From a virus, in IMG/VR virus record IMGVR_UViG_3300046535_001092, positions 1 to 64,000 of that record: DNA of 64,000 bases. One strand, given 5' to 3'. This document shows positions 17,623 to 38,276 of this stretch, piece by piece. Position numbers and translations under genes: made by a program. The notes beneath the pieces were generated by a model. It saw only the letters and a list, made by a program, of their open reading frames with translations. It was not told where the DNA came from and made no database searches. Numbering within the stretch: the first letter of the stretch is position 1; the number at the start of each line of letters is the position of its first letter.

Positions 17623-20098
17623 GATTCACAACTCCTAAGTTTTATAGTCTCTACAATCTCCTATGGTACATTCCACGTCCCATAGTGAGATATGAGGCTG
17701 TACGATTTGGTACTGAGTTGTACACTCGTGTATGGTTGTTGGGTATTGTTGTTGGCACTTATGTCGATGAGATATTCGACGACTACTATTGCAAGAGCTA
17801 ACTGGAGGAACAATAGATGAAGTTCTAATCTAACTACGTCATGTGACTCTGTTGGGCAGGTAAAACAGGGACGTACTAATACCTGCTTAGTGTATACTTG
17901 AAATGAAAAGTATATAGTCCCGAACACGATAAGTATAAGAACTTAAAGACTTGTGGCTTTGGTATACGGAAGCCACACCTATTTAGTCTCTAAGTAATCC
18001 TATCACTGGTACACTAACACCAGTCGGTATATACCTAATAGACCAGTTTGATGGGATTTCTTAGACACTAACTTGGAGGTCACCTTGAGACTTGCTAAGA
18101 GTGAGACAGTTGGGACAGGTAGGAAACGTGGGATGTATGAGACTGAGTATGGCAATGTTTGCTATGTCTCTGGTCCCAATGCTAAATCAGCATATGACAT
18201 AGATGCTGATCAGAGAATCCCTATCGCCCTTGTCACCTTCAAGTACATTGGTCCTGCTCACTAGGAGGGTCGCATGCTACAAATCATCGAAGCAGACAAG
18301 ACTGTGACTGTGTATCACAGAATCACAGCCATTCACAACGATCTCACTGTCAACCTTGATCCTCAGACAAGAGTGGTTGCAGCCTTTGTTGAGGGTGATG
18401 TTGAACTGTGGAGAGTGATTGACGGTGATCGTGGAGTTGACGAGTTGAAGAACTACTACAACTTCCAGCGTGAGGAAGTTGGCATGGTCAACTACAAGAT
18501 CATGGTGGTGGTTGAATGAACATGATCATTGCTTGTGATGGCAAGCTCTACCTTGTCAATGAAGCTGCCTATATGGAGCTTGAAGGAGAGCCAATCACCA
18601 CTATCATTGGATGGGTCAAGTCCAATGGTATCCTCATGGACACCAAGTTCATGGATCTTGACGCCTTCATCCTTGAATTAGAGAGGGGCAAATGAACGTC
18701 ACAATCAACTTCGATTACGTTACCTCTGAGTGGAGAGTAACGTATATTGAGACTGACAAGACCTGTATCTCTGCCACTGGTAAGACTCTCAAAGAGGCTC
18801 TAGAAGGTCTTAAGAGTGACCAGTTGATGTGGCAGATCATTATCTGGTTTGGTATTCACCCTCTCTTTATGATGGAGCATAAGAAGTGACCGCCATCATC
18901 ATCGACAAGACCACTAACCAGGTGCTTGACATTCGATGTGAAAGGGTTGAGTCAATTGATGACTACTTTTTCACAGTCCACTTCAAGGGAGTGATACTTC
19001 CTAGATACTTCCCTAGGACGGAGTTCAGACTTGCAGGTACAACTTACTAGTCCCCCTATCTGGACTTGCAAGCTCTGTCTCAATCCTAAGACTTGCCACC
19101 TCTACTATCCTTCAGAGCGTAAGAAGAATGAAGGTCGTAGAGTGTGTATTGCTTGTTGTAGGACAAGGGACAGACAAGCAGACCAGATCTACGTCAAGAG
19201 GTTAGATGATGCTTAGTTTCTTTGAGCAGATGCAGACCTGGCCTAACGCTAGACTCAAGCATGCCTATGAGACTGGCGATAGAGCCGTCAAACGCTATGT
19301 GATCTACATACTTGAACATCGTCCAGAACACACTCCAGTGTGGGGAGCATCATTGTATGTTAGGCCAAGACCCTTTGCCATCGCCATCCCCAAAGAAACC
19401 GAAAGCACAAAGGTTTCATAATCCCACTGTTGGGATTCAGTATCCCTATGGGCAATCCCTTAGGTTTGCCTATGACGTAGAGTTCGGGCTTGTTGTGATT
19501 GTCTCGGGGAGAATCACAGTAGGAGGGATTGAGGAGATGGAGTTCATTGATATGTTTGGAATTGAAGCCTTCCAACAGATCATCTCGGGGAAGTGATGAT
19601 TAAGATTAGATGGTACGGAAAATGGTACTGGTCTGTACGTAAGATCGTACCCTTCTACGTGCGGCTCAACGAGAAGTGTTTCTTTCTTGGTCCCCTTGGG
19701 ATCAACTGGTGGTAGTAATGACCCTTACAGGTGGTTTTGCCTCATTCTCTGAAGAACGTAGATTGAGGTTCCAACTGGAGACTAGAACCCTTGAAGAATT
19801 GCGAGGGATGCTAGAGAAGTTTCCAGAGGGATCAGCAATCCGTACACTTGTCGCTGAGATCATTGAAACAAGGGAGAAGAAGTCATGATCCAACAGAAGG
19901 GTGCAGTGATTGAAGGTTATGTGAAGAATGAAGAGGATGCAAACAATCCTGAACTCTTTGCAGAAGCCTTGCAAGCTCTTATTGACAAACGTCCCAACGA
20001 CAAGATGGTGATGTTTGCTGGCATGTTCAGCACAGAGATGGCTCACAAGATCATTGGCATGCTGACACCACACGGGAAGAGGATGTAAGGGAGGTCAA

Positions 20099-20449: not shown

Positions 20450-22412
20450 TTCACAGTCAAACAAGATTGCCACACGGTAGTTGCAACTAGTTGTGTGGTA
20501 GGCTGTGAGACTCGACTAAGCGAGTATAAATAGCTTTTAGGCTTAGTGCGCTCCATTCACCTTAGGGTGGATGGGGGTAAAGTCCGTATACTTGCTCACA
20601 CAAGTATAACAGCATAACGGACAAGGTGAGTAAGGACGTTATGCCTGTATGGATGTTGGGACTATGTTATGGGCTTGCTTGTTACGTCCCTCCTATAAAT
20701 AAAGCGGGTCTGTGCCTCTGGATCAATTGCTAGTCTGACGCTAGAGGCGAGATAGTGACTAGCCAAAGGGTGGCTGTGTTAGGAACCTTGGTAGTGGTGC
20801 AAGCCACATAAACTACCAGCTATTTAATCATATGACTAGCGATACACTCCTAGACCACCTCCTTGATAGGATCAAGTCCTATAGGGATTGCAGGCATCAG
20901 TGGCTCAGAATGGGGCATCTAGAACGTGCTCTATTCTATGAGACTAAGCTTGTAGGTGTAGTTGAGTTATTGGAGGTATATGATTGCAGATCTGTAGGAG
21001 GTTTTGGTAAGGGTCAGCCTAAAGGTCAAGACCTTATGCAACGAGTTAGGTGGCTCTTAAAGAAATATGAAGAAAGGGTTTGACCATAGGCAGCTGTGAT
21101 GGGTAATTGGTTATTGAAGGTAGTAACAAGTCTACTTTACCCGGAGTAAAACGCTACCTACCCTATGGTCAATTAGGTTTAGCCTCTCACATAATCAACA
21201 CGATAGCCATGCTGGGAAAGTCTAATAGTTGGTCCTGCAATTGCTGGTGCTCGTAATCAACATAAGGCCTTAGGCGTTGGGCTTAGGAACCTTATACAGT
21301 AATTGTTGCCCATTAATGGTTCTCGCCATGGGGCAGTTAGATGGTGTGGAATCCGTGTCCTGAGTGTGTTACTTGGGGTGTGAGAGGCTATCACAGATTG
21401 TTGGGATAGGAAATGGTATATGGGCCTGGCCGACTTCTACCGGCAGCATTGTCCATATCGTAGAGAAGCCTATCCTGACAATATAATCACGCTAAAGGGA
21501 GGGTTGCAAGTGCAGTCCAAAGAACAGAAGCGTAAGGATGGTGAGGAGCGCAATAAGCAGTGGCAAGAGATGTCTACTGCTGACAAGATTGCCTCCTTGA
21601 AGGGTCGCAGAGGAAAGTCAAAGCGTCAGATGAAGAAGTTGGAGGAGTCCAAGTGAATCTCCACCAGTTCTACTTTGACAGTTGGATACTGGCTAAGAAG
21701 ATGAGGTGGAGAATTGGGCAAGCATTGTTCAATAACCTCATGGATGTGAGGCCAGAGCTTGCAGAGAAGTTGAGGGGAACTAAGAATGATCCCTTCTTCT
21801 CTGAGTCTCCAACAGATCCCCGCTACGACGCAGCTATCAAGATCATCGAGAAGGAGTGGTTTGAAGATGCCAGTCCACGCCAAGACTCCTGAGGACTGTA
21901 AACATCTCAGGAACTTTGGTTTCCCCATCTTTGAAAGTCCTGTAACCCATATCGAGTCCATAACTCTTGGGTCACTTGCTGGTTTGTATGCTAGCCATAG
22001 TAAGAGTGATATCCTTTGTCCATACTGTAAAGTGGCATTGGATGAGGCTACTTCTCTTACTATGTTAGTGAGAGTAGTCAAGATAACTGGCGATTGTATA
22101 GGACTTGTAGAGGTAGCTCCAGAAGGTCAAAGGGCTCTTAAGTGTTCTGAATGTGAATCCAGATTCACCTTACCAAAAGGTGGAGGTTACGATGCCAGTT
22201 CCAGTTCATAAGCTCTCGTCAGTGCTTGAACAACAGCTTGCACCACGTCTATCAACCTCATTGGCTGATAGATTGATCTGTGGGGCAATCGACATCTCAC
22301 AACATGTCCTTGATCGTAAGGACCGACAGGGGTCCAACAAGCGTACCAGGTCATCCATCACAGTCACCTTGGGCCATTTGAAGGACTATGAGGAACGTGG
22401 AGGGAAGCTCTA

Positions 22413-23657: not shown

Positions 23658-24104
23658 ATGAGTGTTCCAGGTCTAGTTAAAGTTATTAGCGGTGGGCAAA
23701 CAGGGGTAGATAGGGTAGGCCTAGAGGTTGCAAAAGAGAAGGGACTTGAGACAGGTGGAACCGCTCCAAGGGGCTACAAGACTGAGAAGGGCTTCGATGT
23801 CTCCCTCAAGGACTATGGGCTTGTTGAAGATACTTCGTACGACTATAATCCACGGACTCGTGCGAATGTCAGAGATAGTGATGGAACTGTCATATTTGGT
23901 AATACTACCAGTGTTGGCAGCAAGCTTACTATTAGACTTTGCAAGGACTACAAGAGGCCCTATCTTGAGAACCCTTCTATCACTGAGCTACGTCAGTGGC
24001 TCTTGTTTAATAAGATTGCTGTCCTTAACGTGGCAGGCAATAGGTTGAGCCAGAATGCGACGGCTGCCCATTATGCTAGAGGCATCCTCATGGAGGTGTT
24101 ATGA
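23658..24104 (+). CDS. SLOG-superfamily protein (MoCo-carrier/YpsA-like)
   Basis: VISGGQTGVDR..GG.AP.G..TE.G..YGL.E..RT..NVRDSDGT..LNVAGNR. Confidence 0.85.
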   Translation: MSVPGLVKVISGGQTGVDRVGLEVAKEKGLETGGTAPRGYKTEKGFDVSLKDYGLVEDTSYDYNPRTRANVRDSDGTVIFGNTTSVGSKLTIRLCKDYKRPYLENPSITELRQWLLFNKIAVLNVAGNRLSQNATAAHYARGILMEVL

Positions 24105-24650
24105 AGGATATTGTGTTTGGGATTATCACTCTGCTTATAGTATGTGTACTAGCTGGTACCGCAGTTAGTGCTTGCTATATCACTACCTTTCTGCCCCTCA
24201 AGAATGGCTATTGTCAGACCTATATTCAGCCTACAAGCTGGAGTGGTAGTGGTTTCTGGAGTTGGCAGCCATGCCATAAGGTGAATCCCTAATGGAAAAG
24301 ATCATTGTAGCAGAGATGAAACCTGACTGGCTTGAGCCATATAGGACTATGGGACAGGATATCCCAGTCGTAGTTGCTCGACTCAATGCTAGTCCTAACT
24401 ACATGCCAAGGACTAGACTTGATTGGGGCATGATTAGTTGTGCTCTAAGAGATGGCTATGAGGTTAGGATTAGACCGAGAAAGAAGTGAGACTCTAAGTG
24501 AGCCATCTAATCCCTTGTATGAGACATTCCGGTATCTGGCGACCTCCATACTGGTTTAGTTTCTCCTAGGTGCTTTAGATGGCTCTCTTAGGTTCTCACT
24601 GAGACTCTAGGAATACCATTGAACAGCCTCGAAAAAGCGAACACTCATAA

Positions 24651-24722
24651 GTCTAATTAGCTCAGTATGGTAGAGCATCAGCTAAAACCTGAGGGTCGGT
24701 GGTTCGATCCCACCATTAGACA
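24651..24722 (+). tRNA. Atypical tRNA or tRNA-like element, apparent anticodon AAA
   Basis: Acceptor GTCTAAT/ATTAGAC, D arm GCTC-AGTATGGTA-GAGC, T arm GGTGG-TTCGATC-CCACC; anticodon stem only 4 bp (TCAG/CTGA); loop CTAAAAC; no encoded CCA. Confidence 0.7.
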
Positions 24723-24915
24723 GCGACGTGGGTGATTAGGTTCAATGGTATTCTTATGGTCTTACATCTCCATCGCTACACAAAGTTGCAAGACAATGCC
24801 TTCGTCCGAACATGCAAGAAGTGTGGTAAGAAGCAGGGGTTGTCTACCATAATTGCATGCCCGATGTTGGTTGTACGTTGTTGGAAGACGCTAAGGAATC
24901 TACCTAGACAGTCGT

Positions 24916-25260
24916 ATGATAAGGGAGGTCAAAGTGCCACAGACATATACAAAGATGGATCCCACTGAGAAGGCTAAGTGGGTTGCAGCTCTGAGGTCTG
25001 GAGACTACAAGCAGTGTACACAGGTTCTCTACAGTCCTAAGTCTAACTCCTATTGCTGTCTTGGAGTTAAGCTTGAAGTAGTAAATAGGCTTACTCGTGC
25101 TGATGGAATTTATATGCCAACTTTCAAGGAGCTTGCTACTTTAGATTGGAAGCGGGTTGTAGGCATTGATTATGGTGCAATCGGCAGGCTTATCAACATG
25201 AATGACAAAGAGGACCAGAACTTCAATCAGATCGCTGATTGGATTGAGGCTAACCTCTAA
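24916..25260 (+). CDS. Hypothetical protein, CC-motif paralog family
   Basis: KAKWVAALRSGDYKQ..YCCLGV..MND..F.QIADWIE. Confidence 0.7.
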   Translation: MIREVKVPQTYTKMDPTEKAKWVAALRSGDYKQCTQVLYSPKSNSYCCLGVKLEVVNRLTRADGIYMPTFKELATLDWKRVVGIDYGAIGRLINMNDKEDQNFNQIADWIEANL

Positions 25261-25605
25261 CACTTGCGGAGGTCAAAGATGGAGTTAGGTGCAGATAAGG
25301 CCTTAGAGATTACTCGATAGGAGAAGGCATGCCACAGAACCTTATGGTCCATCGAGGCTTGTTCACAGGCTATCACTATGCTGTGCATGCTTCTTACCAC
25401 AATCGTAGACCTACCTTGGAGTTCTTTGAGAGGGAGCCTGAGGCTATCAAGGATGCCAAGCTCAAACTCTACAATTGTAGTAGAGTAACAGTATACTCGC
25501 TTGAGGACTGTACCTTTGTAGGTAAGGCAATACTTGAGTCCAGGTCAGCTAAGAAGAAGCTGGTCAAGTTGAAGGAATATCAGATAAAGGACGGAGAGTA
25601 AGAAG

Positions 25606-25965: not shown

Positions 25966-27434
25966 AGATTGTGGTCCCTCAAATCATCTGGGGGCGTAAG
26001 CTGGCATGGGAACTCAACTAGCCCAAACTACACAAGGGCACATATGTCTACCGAGTAGTAACTAGGTGTCTATTAATTTAGTGTAACATCCTAGTGAATA
26101 GTAAGGTAGATGGCGTCTATCATTTGATAGTAGAGATTGCATACAGGCCACATAACTTCGTCATCATCATGCGCTACCTCATCTATGTCGTTGTCGGTGT
26201 TCCAGTGTTCATCTATTACACCCTCCTGAGTGCTTATGATGATTGGAGACTGTCTTGCAGATAAAGGCTGCTACACTCTACAAGAAGGGTCAGGCTCTCA
26301 TAGACAAGTTCAACCCCTGCAATATCACCACAGATGATAAGGGCTATATTCATTGTAGTCTAGGTAGAAAGCCTAGCCGACCAGGAACCACTTACTGTTG
26401 TGATGATTGTAAGTATGTCAGTGATGAGGGTTGTACTGTTAAGTCTCTGGGCTGTAAGTTGGGGATGTGCTTCCAAGGTCCGGTGAGAGACTTCTGGAAG
26501 CAGGAGACTCCATTCCCTCCAGAGTTTATCGTTGAGATGAACAAGCTCCAAGACAAGGCACATAAGGCTCGCTACAACCTAACCTGTCGAACCATCACTA
26601 AGGAGTTAAATGGGTAATCGTATTAGATTGAAGCCCCTCTCCAAGCGTCTATCGGTGGGGGAGAAGCGTCGTAGACTGGCTAGGATTGCAAGGAGAAAGC
26701 TGAAAAATGGCTAGAATCATCGTCGGTGGATCAACTAACCCCTTTGTTAGTGTGGGGCAAGCACAAGAAGGAGAGTAACATGCCAGCCTATGCAATCAAA
26801 TCATCACGCTATATCAGCGACAGGAAGACATTGTACTTCAAGACCAGTGTTCCTGCTGGAGACATTTGCGAAGCCATTGCAAACTTCAAGGAGGTACATA
26901 GACATGAAAGGGTAACTGGAATCGACTGTAACGATAACGAGAGGATTGTAAGACAGGATCGTGCCTGGTATATACCAAACACGGCTGCGGCTCGTTAATT
27001 GTAGGCCAGACTCAAGCCATATGTGTTTGAGTCTGCTCTAGAGATAACGAACAACCAACCTAAGGAGTGAGCATGGCTGGATTGAGTGTGCGTAAGGACT
27101 ATAAGGATGCTGTTGAGAGGCACTTCAAGACCCTAGATGGGGCTGGAGACATTCTCAAGAAGGTGGCGGCGGGGGCAGAGTTTGAAGAGCTTGAGACTGG
27201 CGCAGAGGATGCTCTTAGAGGTGGAGAGAGACGAGAGATTCACTATGTCAAGCTGAAGAATGGCGAAGAGAAGATCCGGATTGAGGTCTACTACCTTTCT
27301 TAAGGGTTTAGGCGGTCTAGCTGATTGTCCAGTGAATTCTGTCGCTAGTATGCTGCTACGCTGACAATGCCTAGTAAGCTCTGCGGGCAGAGACCGCCTA
27401 AAGTATTTATTAACATTTGAGTGGAGATGGTCGC

Positions 27435-29339: not shown

Positions 29340-29606
29340 ATGCCTTATAAAGTTCGCATTAGGCGTAACAGTGACAATCTAATCAGAACCTATGATGACG
29401 ATTTAGATTGGCATGATAGCTCTATGTTCTGGTGGACTGAGGGTAACGCAGGGTGTGACTGTAATAGGGCCTTGTTCTTTGCTAGAGCGGTAGATGAAGA
29501 TGAGCCAGATTGGGATAATATCCCTTGTGGCGATAAACTTTACACTGTGTTAGATATTACTCTAGAAGATGGTCGAGTGATTGAGGTTGATGCTCCGGTA
29601 GCTTAA
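29340..29606 (+). CDS. Hypothetical protein
   Basis: FWWTEGNAGCDCNR..F motif. Confidence 0.65.
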   Translation: MPYKVRIRRNSDNLIRTYDDDLDWHDSSMFWWTEGNAGCDCNRALFFARAVDEDEPDWDNIPCGDKLYTVLDITLEDGRVIEVDAPVA

Positions 29607-29668
29607 CTGGAGAAAGCCTCGGACTTCTAATCCGATGACTGGGGGTTCGAATCCCCCCTGGAGCACCA
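29592..29668 (+). tRNA. tRNA-Arg(UCU)
   Basis: GCTCCGG/CTGGAGC acceptor + ACCA; anticodon arm TCGGA-CTTCTAA-TCCGA; T arm GGGGG-TTCGAAT-CCCCC. Confidence 0.92.
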
Positions 29669-31442: not shown

Positions 31443-33867
31443 GGAGGGAGTATGAGGCCGCTACACTTCGTAGATGATGGTAAGGAGTATGCGATTGAGT
31501 TCAAGAGGAAGTTGTCTGATGTCACGTTACAGAGAATCGCTGGTGGTAACTCTGTCATGGGTCCTTCTACTTACCCTTATACTACCGTGGACATTGTGGA
31601 AGTGGATAAGTCTACGAGTCCATACACTCGTAGGGTACACCGTACGTTCACAGTAGGTTGTCACCATAAGGATAGATTCAATCGGGAGAAGGGTCGCATT
31701 AACGCTCTGCGCCAGGTCTCACGCACCGATAGCTTGAGTTATGAGTTTAAGGCTAAGCTGTGGCAGACCTACATGGAGCGGGCTAATGTCACCGACAGTC
31801 TTGAAGGTTAAGTGTACACATCCATTGCATTGGACAGGAAAGGTTAAACATGGCGGCAAAGTCCTTCTCTACTGCCACAAGTGCAACTCTTACGTGTGAC
31901 AAGTGTGGGGGTGCTTGTACACGTCGAATTCTAACACAGACCCCACACATTGATGTAGTTGGCAAGTCTAGTGGAGTAAATGCACTACAGTGGATCTGCG
32001 GAGTCTGCCTTCAATATTTGATAGGTTATCGCTGATGAAAGCTAAACTCACCATCACCCTCTCTGCCGAGTCTAAGGATGAGGTCATGAGTACCTTCCCT
32101 TCCGAGTACAAGTTTATAAGGGAATCGTTTGAGAAGGTGCTCAAGGATCATGGATTCATGGGAGTTGTCAAACCTGAACACACAGTTGTAAGGTGGCTAC
32201 TGGATTCAAGTTATGGGAATGAAGGATTACACGGGGAAGGCTAGGACTTGCGTGGGGGGTCTTAGTTGTTGTGGGACTAATTATGGCCCACAGAAGACTA
32301 AGAGAAGGACCCGCAGACATCAACGTAGAGTTGATAAGATGAAACTGAAGAAGGAGATTGAGGAATGAAGGCTATCTTCACTGAGAGGTTAAAAGAACAG
32401 TTCGGCAATATTGGTGTGGGTGCTACCTTTATTGTAGGTCCAGATTCCAAAGTAGTCTGTGTTAAGACTGCCAGAGCATTTGACGAGTCATATAATGCCT
32501 TTGACTTAGTTAACAATGTACGACTTGAGATGAGTGCTGGAGATCCTGTGTTCTTGGTTGATTGTGAGCTTAGGGTTAAGAGGGAGGTTTAGAGGAGGCT
32601 GCGGTGAATAGCTTTAAGAAGTGGAAGTTTCGCAAGAGGCTAAAGAAGGTGGTCAAATGGTATGGAAAAAGGTCGGGACTAACGAAGGAACAGAGGTCGA
32701 CAGTCCTAGAGAAGATGCTCTTAAGCCTAGGGTTATAGAATACACAGATCATGACCATGAATGGGCCTTTTTTCGAGCTACACATCCCCACTACTACTGT
32801 CAGGCTCTAAAAGACTCCCCCAATTGGCCCTATGTCACCCAAGAGGAACTGAAGGAGTCCGTCCGATGAAGATCTACACTAAGATTCTTGCTGGAGATGA
32901 CAGAGATGATGCTTGTAGAGAGGCTATTAAACAGCATTGTACTCACATGTTCTTTAATGGTAGGCTGTATAGAGTATCCTACTCTATAACTGAGATGCCT
33001 GGCTATGACAGTCTAAGAACCTGGTTAGAGAATAGACCTAATCCAAACGGTCAGTCCTACATTGAGGTTGTGTGATGAGCTACATACGCATCCCATCTAA
33101 CCCTGAACGTCTCCATATATTCCACGACAACGATGGAAGGGTGAAGATTAATCGGGGTCCATTCACTAAGTTGTTGAGTGTGAAGGCTAGTGACTTCAAT
33201 GCCCTAATCAACGCATATAACGAGTTTGACATGATCCCTGAAGGGGGATTTGAGGCTGGCAGGCTCACCCTTAAAGAGGAGGGATCTTGTAAGGATGCTG
33301 ACTACGGGAAGGTTATCCTTGAGATTAAGGGAGAGCCTGACTTAGAGATGTGGCTTGTGACCTGGCACTACATTGCTAGTCGTAGAGGTAGATTTACTAA
33401 GTTGAAGTCTCGGTTTACAGTGGAGAAGAAGAATGGTTAGAAGGACTTGCTATTCTATCGGATACACCTTAACTATTGGAGCTAATAGGTATGACAAACA
33501 TACCTTAGTAGCTGCTAATAGTCTTTCTGAGGTAGAAAGCTTATTCAGGGAGAGTGTTATTGGTCCTTGGACTTCCTTTAAGATAACCTCAGTCCAAAGT
33601 CAAGGTTCCATAGTTGTTGGAGGGGAAGATGCCTAAAGATGTCAAGAGCGTCTATAAGGTCTGCTACTACGCTAGTGATGGGTTTGGTCGTAGTGAGACT
33701 ACCTCTAAGAGCGTGTTGGTTATAGCAGAGAGCTTTGCAGAGGCAGAGGACTTGTTCTGGGATAATAAGCCTACTAAGGCTGAGACTGTCTGGTGGGTTG
33801 GGTGTGAGGGTAGAGTGCATGCAGGTAAGGTTTAGGGAGATTCGTGTAAGTAAGATTGGAGGTTAGG

Positions 33868-35019
33868 ATGGCTAGTTGTTTACAGGCACACAACGTATAT
33901 CTAGGTTGTGACCCTGAACTTTTCGTCGTTCGGAATGGTAAGGTGATTGGAGGGGAGAAGGTTATTAGCGAGAATGGCCTCCCTTACATGAGTCGGAAGG
34001 ATCCTACTAAGCCATGGGGTGGGACCATGGACGATACTAAGTGTAAGTTTGTACTCGATGGAGTGCAGATTGAGATGACCACATCCCCCTTCAGTTGTAG
34101 GGAGGTTATGGGCGATACGATTGCATGCGCCTTTGCAACCCTCAAGGAGCATCTCAAGAAGTATGATGCAAAGCCATGCTTTGATGCGGTTGTTGAGGTT
34201 GATCCTGAGGAGATGGCTACCCTGAGTGAGAAGGCTAGAATCTTTGGATGTGCTCCTTCTGAGAACATCTATGGTCCTCAACCGATTGAAGTGGATCCTA
34301 CAGTCTATCTTAAGAGAGCTGCAGGTGGTCATATCCATCTTGGACTGTTCAATCCTATCTTTGCTGGGATCGACTCAAAGATTGACTACCGGACTAGACT
34401 GGTTCCTATCCTTGACATCCTTGTGGGTAATACCTCAGTCATGGTGGACAGAGATCCTGGGGCTGTGGAGCGTAGAAAGGCTTATGGCAGAGCGGGAGAG
34501 TTTAGACTGCCCAAGCATGGACTTGAGTACCGTACCCTGTCTAACTTCTGGATTAAGGACTATAGACTGTTGTCCTTTGTGATGGGACTGTCGAGACTGT
34601 CTGTGGCTGTGCTTGGTAGCACACTACAGCGGACTATGTTCGACAATCCTAAGTATAGAGGGATCGCTGAGTATGCTCAATACTTAGATCAGCCTGACTA
34701 TGAGGCTGAGTTGCTGAAGAAGGTTGACATTGAGCAGATTCGGGCTGCCATCAACAAGAATGACTTAGATTTGGCTCAGAAGAACTTCGAAGGCGTCAAA
34801 GCCTTCCTTGCTGATCATGTTAGACGTCATACAAACATGGGTTTGAATTGGGAGACTGTGCCTAACTTTGAGTACTTTGTGAGTGAGGTTAATCGTGAGG
34901 GTCTTGGGAGATTCTTCAAGGAGGATCCTATTGAACACTGGACTAACCTCCCACTAAGTTTGGACAGACAGAATAGAGGTTGGGAACACTTCATCTCTAC
35001 ACTACCACGACGAGGTTGA
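33868..35019 (+). CDS. phiEco32-like COOH-NH2 ligase type 2
   Basis: LGCDPELFV, LDGVQIE, FGCAP, RAAGGHIHLG, YGRAGEFR, LEYRTLSNFW. Confidence 0.88.
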   Translation: MASCLQAHNVYLGCDPELFVVRNGKVIGGEKVISENGLPYMSRKDPTKPWGGTMDDTKCKFVLDGVQIEMTTSPFSCREVMGDTIACAFATLKEHLKKYDAKPCFDAVVEVDPEEMATLSEKARIFGCAPSENIYGPQPIEVDPTVYLKRAAGGHIHLGLFNPIFAGIDSKIDYRTRLVPILDILVGNTSVMVDRDPGAVERRKAYGRAGEFRLPKHGLEYRTLSNFWIKDYRLLSFVMGLSRLSVAVLGSTLQRTMFDNPKYRGIAEYAQYLDQPDYEAELLKKVDIEQIRAAINKNDLDLAQKNFEGVKAFLADHVRRHTNMGLNWETVPNFEYFVSEVNREGLGRFFKEDPIEHWTNLPLSLDRQNRGWEHFISTLPRRG

Positions 35020-37514: not shown

Positions 37515-38276
37515 ATGTCATTCTATGTGTACTGTAATAGAGCGAGTGATGGGGCAGCCGAGCTTACGCGTGGGCTGGAAGGAACGCGGCTGCGCAGGTT
37601 TGATGGTATGGACTTCTGGCGTAAGGGCAAGCGGATTGTGCCTAAGAAGGGCGATATCATCATCTGTTGGGGATCTCCACTTCCTGAGATTGATGGAGTT
37701 AGAGTGTTGAATGGTGAGGATGACCATTACAATAAGTATCGGGCTGCGGAGTTTCTCAGCTTCAAGGGAATCCCCACAATCACAGCTGTTGCACAGTCCA
37801 GAAGACCTACCCCAGTAGACGCTAATGGTATGCCTATTGAGTGGGTTCCACGGACGTTCCATCATGTTGGTGGGAATGACCTGATTAAGCCTCCATATAA
37901 GCCTGACTTCTGGGTTAAAAAGGAGAACTTCGTTAGAGAGTTCAGGGTCCATAGCTTCGCCTCTAAGTCGATTAGAGCCGGTGTTAAGGTTCATAGAGAG
38001 GGGTTTGCTAATCCTAGTCCTTGGATTAGAAGCTTCGATGCAGGCTGGAGAATTAACTATGACAACTTCTCCTCTACTAAGCAGCTGAGAAGTCTTGCTC
38101 ATAAGGCTTGCAAGACCATGAATCTGGTGTTTGGAGCGGTAGACATCGCTGAGAAGGCTGATGGTACGATGGTGGTATTGGAGATTAATCGTGCTCCAGG
38201 GATTGAAGGTAACTCGATTCCTGCCTACTGTGCAGCTATTCAGAAGTGGGCTAAGGGAGAGAGCGAAGGAGAATAA
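37515..38276 (+). CDS. ATP-grasp peptide ligase (RimK-like)
   Basis: NK..A..L..GIP, REFRVH, WIRS, FGAVDI, VLEINRAPG. Confidence 0.85.
   Translation: MSFYVYCNRASDGAAELTRGLEGTRLRRFDGMDFWRKGKRIVPKKGDIIICWGSPLPEIDGVRVLNGEDDHYNKYRAAEFLSFKGIPTITAVAQSRRPTPVDANGMPIEWVPRTFHHVGGNDLIKPPYKPDFWVKKENFVREFRVHSFASKSIRAGVKVHREGFANPSPWIRSFDAGWRINYDNFSSTKQLRSLAHKACKTMNLVFGAVDIAEKADGTMVVLEINRAPGIEGNSIPAYCAAIQKWAKGESEGE

Follow-up and report, generated by a model that had tools for sequence, protein, structure and literature searches.

The virus of IMG/VR record IMGVR_UViG_3300046535_001092 carries a transfer RNA (tRNA)-shaped element with an AAA anticodon, enclosed by a long closing duplex that recurs in two paralogous copies around unrelated inserts. 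The stretch analyzed here, referred to as the window, comprises 64,000 nucleotides and is the first 64 kb of this complete 97,163-bp record, which has direct terminal repeats. The reading that we tentatively favor, with a confidence slightly below an even chance, is that the element is a stem-clamped cassette in an early polycistronic transcript, in which the closing duplex, or wrapper, would be cut and a tRNA-shaped RNA that is not a normal decoder would be released.

The RNA fold of the cargo is that of a real tRNA. ARAGORN called it tRNA-Phe(aaa) at 24651-24722 and drew a cloverleaf, and the Rfam model RF00005 matched it over the full model positions 1-71 with 54 bits, against a gathering score of 29. 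The tRNA layout and the core invariants were taken by direct reading of the sequence, and the latter are complete: U8, A14, G15-C48, G18 G19, A21, A26.G44, G46, G53-C61, U54 U55 C56, and A58. Departures from a canonical tRNA are confined to the anticodon arm, which has 15 nt instead of the 17 nt of a 5-bp stem and a 7-nt loop, and which carries A34 and C38. The anticodon is AAA, neither GAA, the normal bacterial choice for Phe, nor another of the normal set. The Infernal alignment to RF00005 deletes two model positions in this arm, and ARAGORN fits the arm only by omitting N26 and pairing A with G on top; the two lost nucleotides either formed one complete pair or were N26 and a base of the variable loop. 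What is damaged is dispensable for RNase P, RNase Z, the CCA-adding enzyme, and further enzymes that read the elbow, a point in favor of some function. A tRNA at this place with an AAA anticodon, a 4-bp anticodon stem, and no CCA had been proposed in the initial annotation, and sequence reading, ARAGORN, and Rfam/Infernal all recover it. The name given to it there, tRNA mimic, is overstated for an RNA that fits the canonical tRNA model with all of its core invariants in place.

The closing duplex exceeds chance and is a selected structure. The perfect 14-bp inverted repeat already described around the tRNA (24611-24624 / 24740-24753) is exact and extends to 23 pairs (24602-24624 / 24740-24762), including two G.U pairs and interrupted by one C x U mismatch. 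The inner helix, previously given as CACTCA/TGGGTG, was also found, as 7 bp with two G.U pairs at 24642-24648 / 24728-24734, between the closing duplex and the acceptor stem. Across the 97-kb genome, there are only three perfect inverted repeats of at least 12 bp with loops of 20-300 nt, all in early intergenic gaps, and the 14-bp core is the longest of them; block shuffles gave 0.9 repeats of at least 12 bp and 0.0 of at least 14 bp. The fold of 24605-24760 reached z = -3.7, with a cloverleaf on a long stem as the minimum-energy structure. Within a 600-nt context, the closing stem had a pair probability of 0.98, the inner helix one of 0.95 on average, and the acceptor stem one of 0.78. With 23 pairs and one mismatch, the duplex also has the length, about 20 bp or more of intramolecular pairing, that is looked for in an RNase III site. 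A more permissive stem count admitting G.U pairs (18/20 pairs) did not outperform shuffles and was therefore not retained.

Furthermore, the closing duplex is not specific to the tRNA, as it is one of three paralogous wrapper stems, each with a different insert (hp0, hp1, and hp2; Table 1). The three stems align in register across 24 pair positions and share the blocks U.AG.CUCUA(A/G)G....CC on the 5' side and GG...U(U/C)CUUA on the 3' side. Their 5' arms are 63-71% identical, as counted from the three-stem alignment. Compensatory double changes occur at 9 of the 24 pair positions, G.U pairs are scattered in the stems, and two of the three wrappers (hp0 and hp1) have 1x1 mismatches at the same two positions. 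Because three paralogous stems hold unrelated inserts, the wrapper is a clamp that can be reused, its maintenance acting on the RNA of the + strand, with the tRNA as one of its cargos. A regular-expression search for the two wrapper blocks returned no convincing fourth copy, and an Rfam scan of the hp0 and hp1 inserts gave zero matches. Genome-wide enrichment of the TGAGACTCTA motif was considered and set aside (12 matches against 7.8 expected, not significant).

Table 1. Coordinates, in the window, of the wrapper stems, the tRNA-shaped cargo, and adjoining features.
Feature	Position	Strand	Remarks
Wrapper hp0	17983-18071	+	Head of small-gene array; insert ~40 nt; register, blocks, and two 1x1 mismatches of hp1
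Wrapper hp1	24487-24598	+	Directly upstream of hp2; 24-pair stem; unrelated insert of ~64 nt
Wrapper hp2	24600-24764	+	Insert is the tRNA plus leader-trailer helix
5' arm of closing (wrapper) duplex, copy hp2	24602-24624	+	Conserved block UGAGACUCUAGG from 24600
3' arm of closing duplex, copy hp2	24740-24762	+	23 pairs with 5' arm
Inner leader-trailer helix, 5' strand (CACUCAU)	24642-24648	+	Ends 2 nt before tRNA 5' end
Inner leader-trailer helix, 3' strand (GUGGGUG)	24728-24734	+	Begins 5 nt past discriminator base
tRNA-shaped cargo, 72 nt	24651-24722	+	All core invariants; CCA not encoded
Acceptor stem	24651-24657 / 24715-24721	+	
D arm	24660-24676	+	
A26	24677	+	
Anticodon arm	24678-24692	+	15 nt, not 17
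Anticodon stem (UCAG / CUGA)	24678-24681 / 24689-24692	+	4 bp
Anticodon loop (CUAAAAC)	24682-24688	+	C32 U33 A34 A35 A36 A37 C38
Anticodon	24684-24686	+	AAA
Variable loop (GGGUC)	24693-24697	+	
T arm	24698-24714	+	
Discriminator base	24722	+	A, then GCG, hence no encoded CCA
Third folded domain of the 444-nt gap	24763-24933	+	Reaches GGAGG site and GTG start at 24934
PF26948-family gene	24934-25260	+	Directly downstream of the element; widespread small phage protein family

The element lies inside a heavily folded gap of 444 nt (z = -5.0 for the whole gap) between a 65-amino-acid (aa) open reading frame (ORF), whose stop codon is overlapped by the 5' arm of hp1, and the PF26948-family gene, whose GTG start is preceded by a GGAGG ribosome-binding site. 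All genes flanking the tRNA element are on the + strand and form a co-directional array. Sigma-70-like promoters and intrinsic terminators showed no enrichment, and none adjoins the element on the + strand. Many other early gaps are also stem-closed domains, with z from -3 to -5, and in 11 of 12 domains folding is stronger for the + than for the - strand. This context fits processing because of the co-directional genes, the lack of an adjoining promoter or terminator, the other folded gaps, and the presence of a Pistol ribozyme.

According to the favored reading, the early array would be transcribed as long polycistronic RNAs, and the wrapper stems of about 24 bp would be the recognition and cleavage sites of a double-strand-specific endonuclease, host RNase III being the default candidate. 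Cutting of the wrapper would both separate the flanking messages and free the insert. The hp2 insert would be trimmed by RNase P at its 5' end and by a 3' processing enzyme and a CCA-adding enzyme at its 3' end, a processing that is expected because the whole tRNA core is retained, from the acceptor stem and the D/T elbow to each of the tertiary invariants. The main roles of the product would be those of a processing signal and of a small, stable RNA with the shape of a tRNA. The RNase III sites of Escherichia coli show an enrichment in intergenic regions inside transcripts (PMC6212723). Among the options raised in the initial annotation, a tRNA-like domain of a larger RNA freed by RNase III-type cleavage is the best supported, given the three-stem family, the compensatory changes, and the folded 444-nt gap devoid of a local promoter or terminator.

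Several considerations weigh against this reading. Transcription, cleavage, and the RNA ends are all deduced from DNA sequence. Nothing ties the wrapper to RNase III specifically, since the blocks and the 1x1 mismatches could equally make it a binding site for a phage protein or a folding insulation. The phage lacks an RNase III of its own; searches for a CCA-adding enzyme, an RNA ligase, an integrase, and Ro60 (TROVE) were also negative. The second tRNA of the phage, tRNA-Arg(UCU), is made without a wrapper, so a wrapper is not needed for tRNA release, and the leader-trailer pairing beside the acceptor stem could slow RNase P. The wrapper family was found by a motif-guided search in one genome, and the count of compensatory changes rests on three sequences. 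The advantage of the + strand in folding is partly a composition effect, as the GC skew of the genome is positive. Finally, the tRNA has no homologue in the collections searched, so that selection on it is not demonstrable and its intact core could equally reflect a recent origin.

It is important to consider whether the cargo could decode. The complete tRNA core, with A35, A36, and A73 present, would suit a working tRNA-Phe(AAA) that is excised, CCA-tailed, charged by phenylalanyl-tRNA synthetase (PheRS), and used on the ribosome, with a short stem that relaxes wobble (UUU, perhaps UUC) and an altered anticodon arm that could confer insensitivity to a host tRNA nuclease; we consider this unlikely, although it deserves attention. 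The cargo also has G10, U20, A26, G44, and U59, which we take to be Phe identity elements of the E. coli type. The UUU share of Phe codons, 35% overall, is somewhat higher in early/middle + strand genes (46%) than outside them (29%), but UUC remains preferred over UUU, most of all outside the early genes. MiaA requires A36-A37-A38, a motif broken by C38 in the cargo, and an all-A.U codon-anticodon helix would therefore presumably lack its usual support at position 37. Moreover, A34 is rare outside Arg-ACG; the rarity of A34 noted earlier agrees with the share of ANN anticodons, which is 2.9% of bacterial tRNA genes (PMC13092985). Short stems as such are not exceptional: a 4-bp anticodon stem is found in 5.6% of bacterial tRNA genes, and one such tRNA, a Trp-CCA with a 4-bp stem, has an expanded decoding range in E. 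coli (PMC13092985). However, these published cases keep a 17-nt arm with the end pair unpaired, and the arm of the cargo is 2 nt shorter. Phage tRNAs have also been proposed to evade anticodon nucleases via anticodon-loop changes (PMC10264068). A tRNA of this body type with a CUAAAA loop is absent, with either arm length, from the 2.9 million viral contigs of IMG/VR. With its arm one pair short, A34-A35-A36, and C38, the cargo is thus probably not a normal decoder, and the minor status of UUU among Phe codons also makes it poorly suited to that role. The earlier view that this is not an ordinary decoder is supported in silico by A34, the 15-nt arm, C38, and the UUU share.

It had also been speculated that a phage deaminase (41890-42237) could edit A34 to inosine, a link that finds no support, as the product is a generic CDA-fold protein without a TadA signature. 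This protein, of 115 aa and with an HAE motif, has its Pfam match in dCMP_cyt_deam_1 (8e-11) and only weak matches to anti-phage dCTP deaminase and RibD; no TadA match was found in NCBIfam or among solved structures.

The other tRNA that ARAGORN found in the whole genome, Arg(tct) at 29592-29668 (+), looks like an ordinary codon-supplement tRNA. It is canonical, encodes CCA, scores 70.5 bits on RF00005, and reads AGA, the commonest Arg codon (34%). It is packed between two ORFs, overlapping the upstream stop codon and ending 3 nt before the next ATG, and its surroundings fold no better than shuffles. Like this and other canonical phage tRNAs (RF00005), the cargo is a cloverleaf with the core invariants, scores above the gathering threshold, and is early and co-directional; unlike tRNA-Arg(UCU), it has A34 (AAA), C38, a 15-nt arm, no CCA, and the 23-bp duplex with the leader-trailer helix. 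Codon usage is odd for a genome of 48% GC (AAG makes up 78% of Lys codons, and Leu is mainly CUA, CUC, and CUU, with CUG rare) and may help to place the host.

The singleton status of the tRNA raises the question of whether it is a decaying gene, that is, a captured Phe-like tRNA with a G34A change and a lost stem pair, carried along as a neutral passenger of a wrapper cassette. The collections searched yielded no homologue. The gap and hp1 gave no blastn match among 50,697 phage records. With the tRNA alone as query, blastn returned nothing but ordinary tRNAs (Ile, Phe, Asn, and Met); among unannotated matches the best, in Pseudoalteromonas phage C7, turned out to be a normal tRNA-Asn. Exact and degenerate patterns of the anticodon arm were without matches in IMG/VR, metagenome contigs, and GTDB genome contigs, the short-arm form being the one searched in the last two. 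Synteny searches through the circularly permuted YpsA (cpYpsA), the PF26948 protein, a 270-aa protein, and TerL uncovered no comparable region: TerL relatives (55-67% identity) were short structural-gene fragments without the early region, 80 distant PF26948 loci from metagenomes had no adjacent tRNA, the other neighbor genes gave no close relatives, and the genome collection contained no relative. Decay would also agree with an RF00005 score below that of tRNA-Arg, with the long non-coding gaps (382 and 444 nt) that this phage genome tolerates, and with a codon usage that shows no need for a tRNA-Phe(AAA). However, the damage is found only in the anticodon arm, with the tertiary invariants and all four helices intact; the loss of exactly one pair requires two matched deletions, and it has left a clean 4-bp helix, a 7-nt loop, and U33. 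The surrounding stems, in addition, show compensatory maintenance. We regard a decaying gene as improbable, although a serious candidate.

A bolder proposal is that the element is a deliberate non-decoding tRNA-shaped RNA from a double-stranded RNA (dsRNA) wrapper system, serving as a defense decoy, as a mask of tRNA-Lys(UUU), or as a shortened-helix tRNA with altered-wobble decoding, and that the wrappers are a general device for releasing small RNAs; we hold this to be doubtful. Improbable in our judgment is the specific role of a tRNA-shaped effector, either a decoy or sponge for a host tRNA-targeting nuclease, sensor, or modification enzyme, or a kissing partner of tRNA-Lys(UUU). With non-decoding mimics such as YrlA (PMC4201824) the cargo shares a deviant anticodon arm beside an elbow and an acceptor that are intact, and there is ample documentation of tRNA-targeting defenses and of tRNA counter-measures in phages (PMC10264068; PMC11555353). 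By direct reading, the U33-A37 stretch is complementary to the tRNA-Lys(UUU) anticodon loop (AAAA / UUU). On the other hand, a partner gene (Ro60/TROVE, RNA ligase, or CCA-adding enzyme) was not found in the phage, the YrlA model is unmatched, conservation lends no support, and any target is pure conjecture. A tRNA-repair context was likewise rejected on the negative RNA ligase search.

A feature acting at the DNA level, whether a miniature mobile element bounded by terminal inverted repeats, a cruciform, or a tRNA-based attachment site, might be suggested by a perfect 14-bp inverted repeat flanking a tRNA gene, tRNA genes being common integration targets, but it is highly improbable, because the helix runs through G.U pairs that are mismatched in DNA, the element ends show no target-site duplication, the phage genome is without an integrase, and the three stems differ by compensatory changes instead of being identical repeat copies. 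An attP or integrative element was rejected, the integrase search being negative.

The comparison with known systems places the stem-clamped cassette among familiar parts. In its four Watson-Crick pairs and 7-nt loop, the anticodon arm resembles 4-bp-stem tRNAs of bacteria and protists such as the Blastocrithidia-type tRNA-Trp CCA (Fakih et al. 2026, PMC13092985), and the ARAGORN drawing with its A.G top pair formally shows the 'unpinned top pair' of that class (PMC13092985). However, those tRNAs keep 17 nt with one end pair mismatched and have CNN anticodons (PMC13092985), whereas the cargo has lost two nucleotides and has an ANN anticodon. The wrappers, on their side, resemble the RNase III stems of the T7 early intercistronic regions and of the 16S/23S rRNA operon, as duplexes of about two turns with small mismatches, intercistronic, forming a related family, and enclosing a released RNA. 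RNase III also has a role in the processing of the T4 tRNA cluster. In contrast to known RNase III stems, the wrappers are putative cleavage sites, and their sequence is unrelated to any known site. To our knowledge, no case has been described of a single tRNA enclosed as cargo by an RNase III stem.

Another likeness is to the YrlA Y RNAs (RF02553; PMC4201824), in which a tRNA-like module on a long stem is recognized by tRNA enzymes; that of Mycobacterium smegmatis is cut by RNase P and receives CCA (PMC4201824). The architecture is different, since in YrlA the long stem, which binds Ro60, branches off where the anticodon arm would be and the acceptor end has a cap, whereas in the phage element the stem continues from the acceptor end. 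RF02553 did not match at the element, its sole hit in the genome being one of 9.5 bits inside the T arm of tRNA-Arg, and TROVE gave zero matches in six frames of the complete genome; a YrlA/Ro60 identity was rejected on these two negative searches. In tRNA punctuation, as seen in mitochondrial transcripts, the MALAT1 mascRNA, and gammaherpesvirus TMERs, a tRNA fold embedded in a longer RNA signals cleavage by RNase P/Z; its anticodon arm is frequently short, and the product does not become aminoacylated. These systems are all eukaryotic or organellar, and we know of none among them that pairs the tRNA fold with a dsRNA clamp.

The kinds of components, namely phage tRNAs, short-stem tRNAs, and intercistronic dsRNA processing stems, are known. 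A truly shortened AAA arm, a tRNA enclosed as cargo, and a three-copy clamp with compensatory changes appear to be undescribed in the literature searched. Phage tRNAs are now being reinterpreted as weapons against tRNA-cleaving defenses, and short-anticodon-stem tRNAs as agents of altered decoding. The element unites an arm shorter than that of the published 4-bp class, an A34 anticodon, and a dsRNA clamp that is reused, in the same early transcript, around two inserts unrelated to the tRNA. Should the clamp prove to be a processing device, it would provide a compact rule by which a phage frees small RNAs and partitions its messages with neither promoters nor terminators; an active cargo would be the equivalent, in a bacterial virus, of the non-decoding tRNA mimics of eukaryotic viruses.

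The terminase of the phage has at most 31% identity to that of any cultured phage. The PF26948-family protein has the conserved motifs AALRSG, SYCCLGV, and IADWIE.NL and 371 relatives in databases, no function being known for any of them; proteins 99% and 50% identical to it were among the matches. The third gene upstream of the element (23658-24104, +) encodes a circularly permuted YpsA protein of the SLOG family (PF12694, 6e-33); the YpsA SLOG family is nucleotide-binding and is seen in conflict systems. Farther downstream, a phiEco32-like COOH-NH2 ligase (PF14395) lies near a weak RimK-like ATP-grasp match (33856-35019 and 37515-38276, +), a pair that suggests a peptide-ligating or nucleotide-modifying module.

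Other structured RNAs occur in the early region. In the same early gene array, a gap of 382 nt (z = -4.7) contains a Pistol self-cleaving ribozyme (RF02679) at 20510-20582 (+), with 57.4 bits against a gathering score of 34.5. Perfect 12-bp repeats close two more intergenic domains on the + strand, 21170-21400 (repeats at 21180/21379; z = -3.6) and 27305-27403 (repeats at 27307/27391), and their stems differ from the wrapper family. Pairing between the Shine-Dalgarno (SD) site and an anti-SD as the closure of the third domain of the 444-nt gap was seen in one fold and discarded, its pair probability being 0.02 in wider context. A second perfect 14-bp complement (24822-24835 / 25388-25401), whose halves are 552 nt apart, brackets the whole PF26948 gene; it is not significant genome-wide, with about 0.2 expected by our estimate, and it would fit a stem around the whole message.

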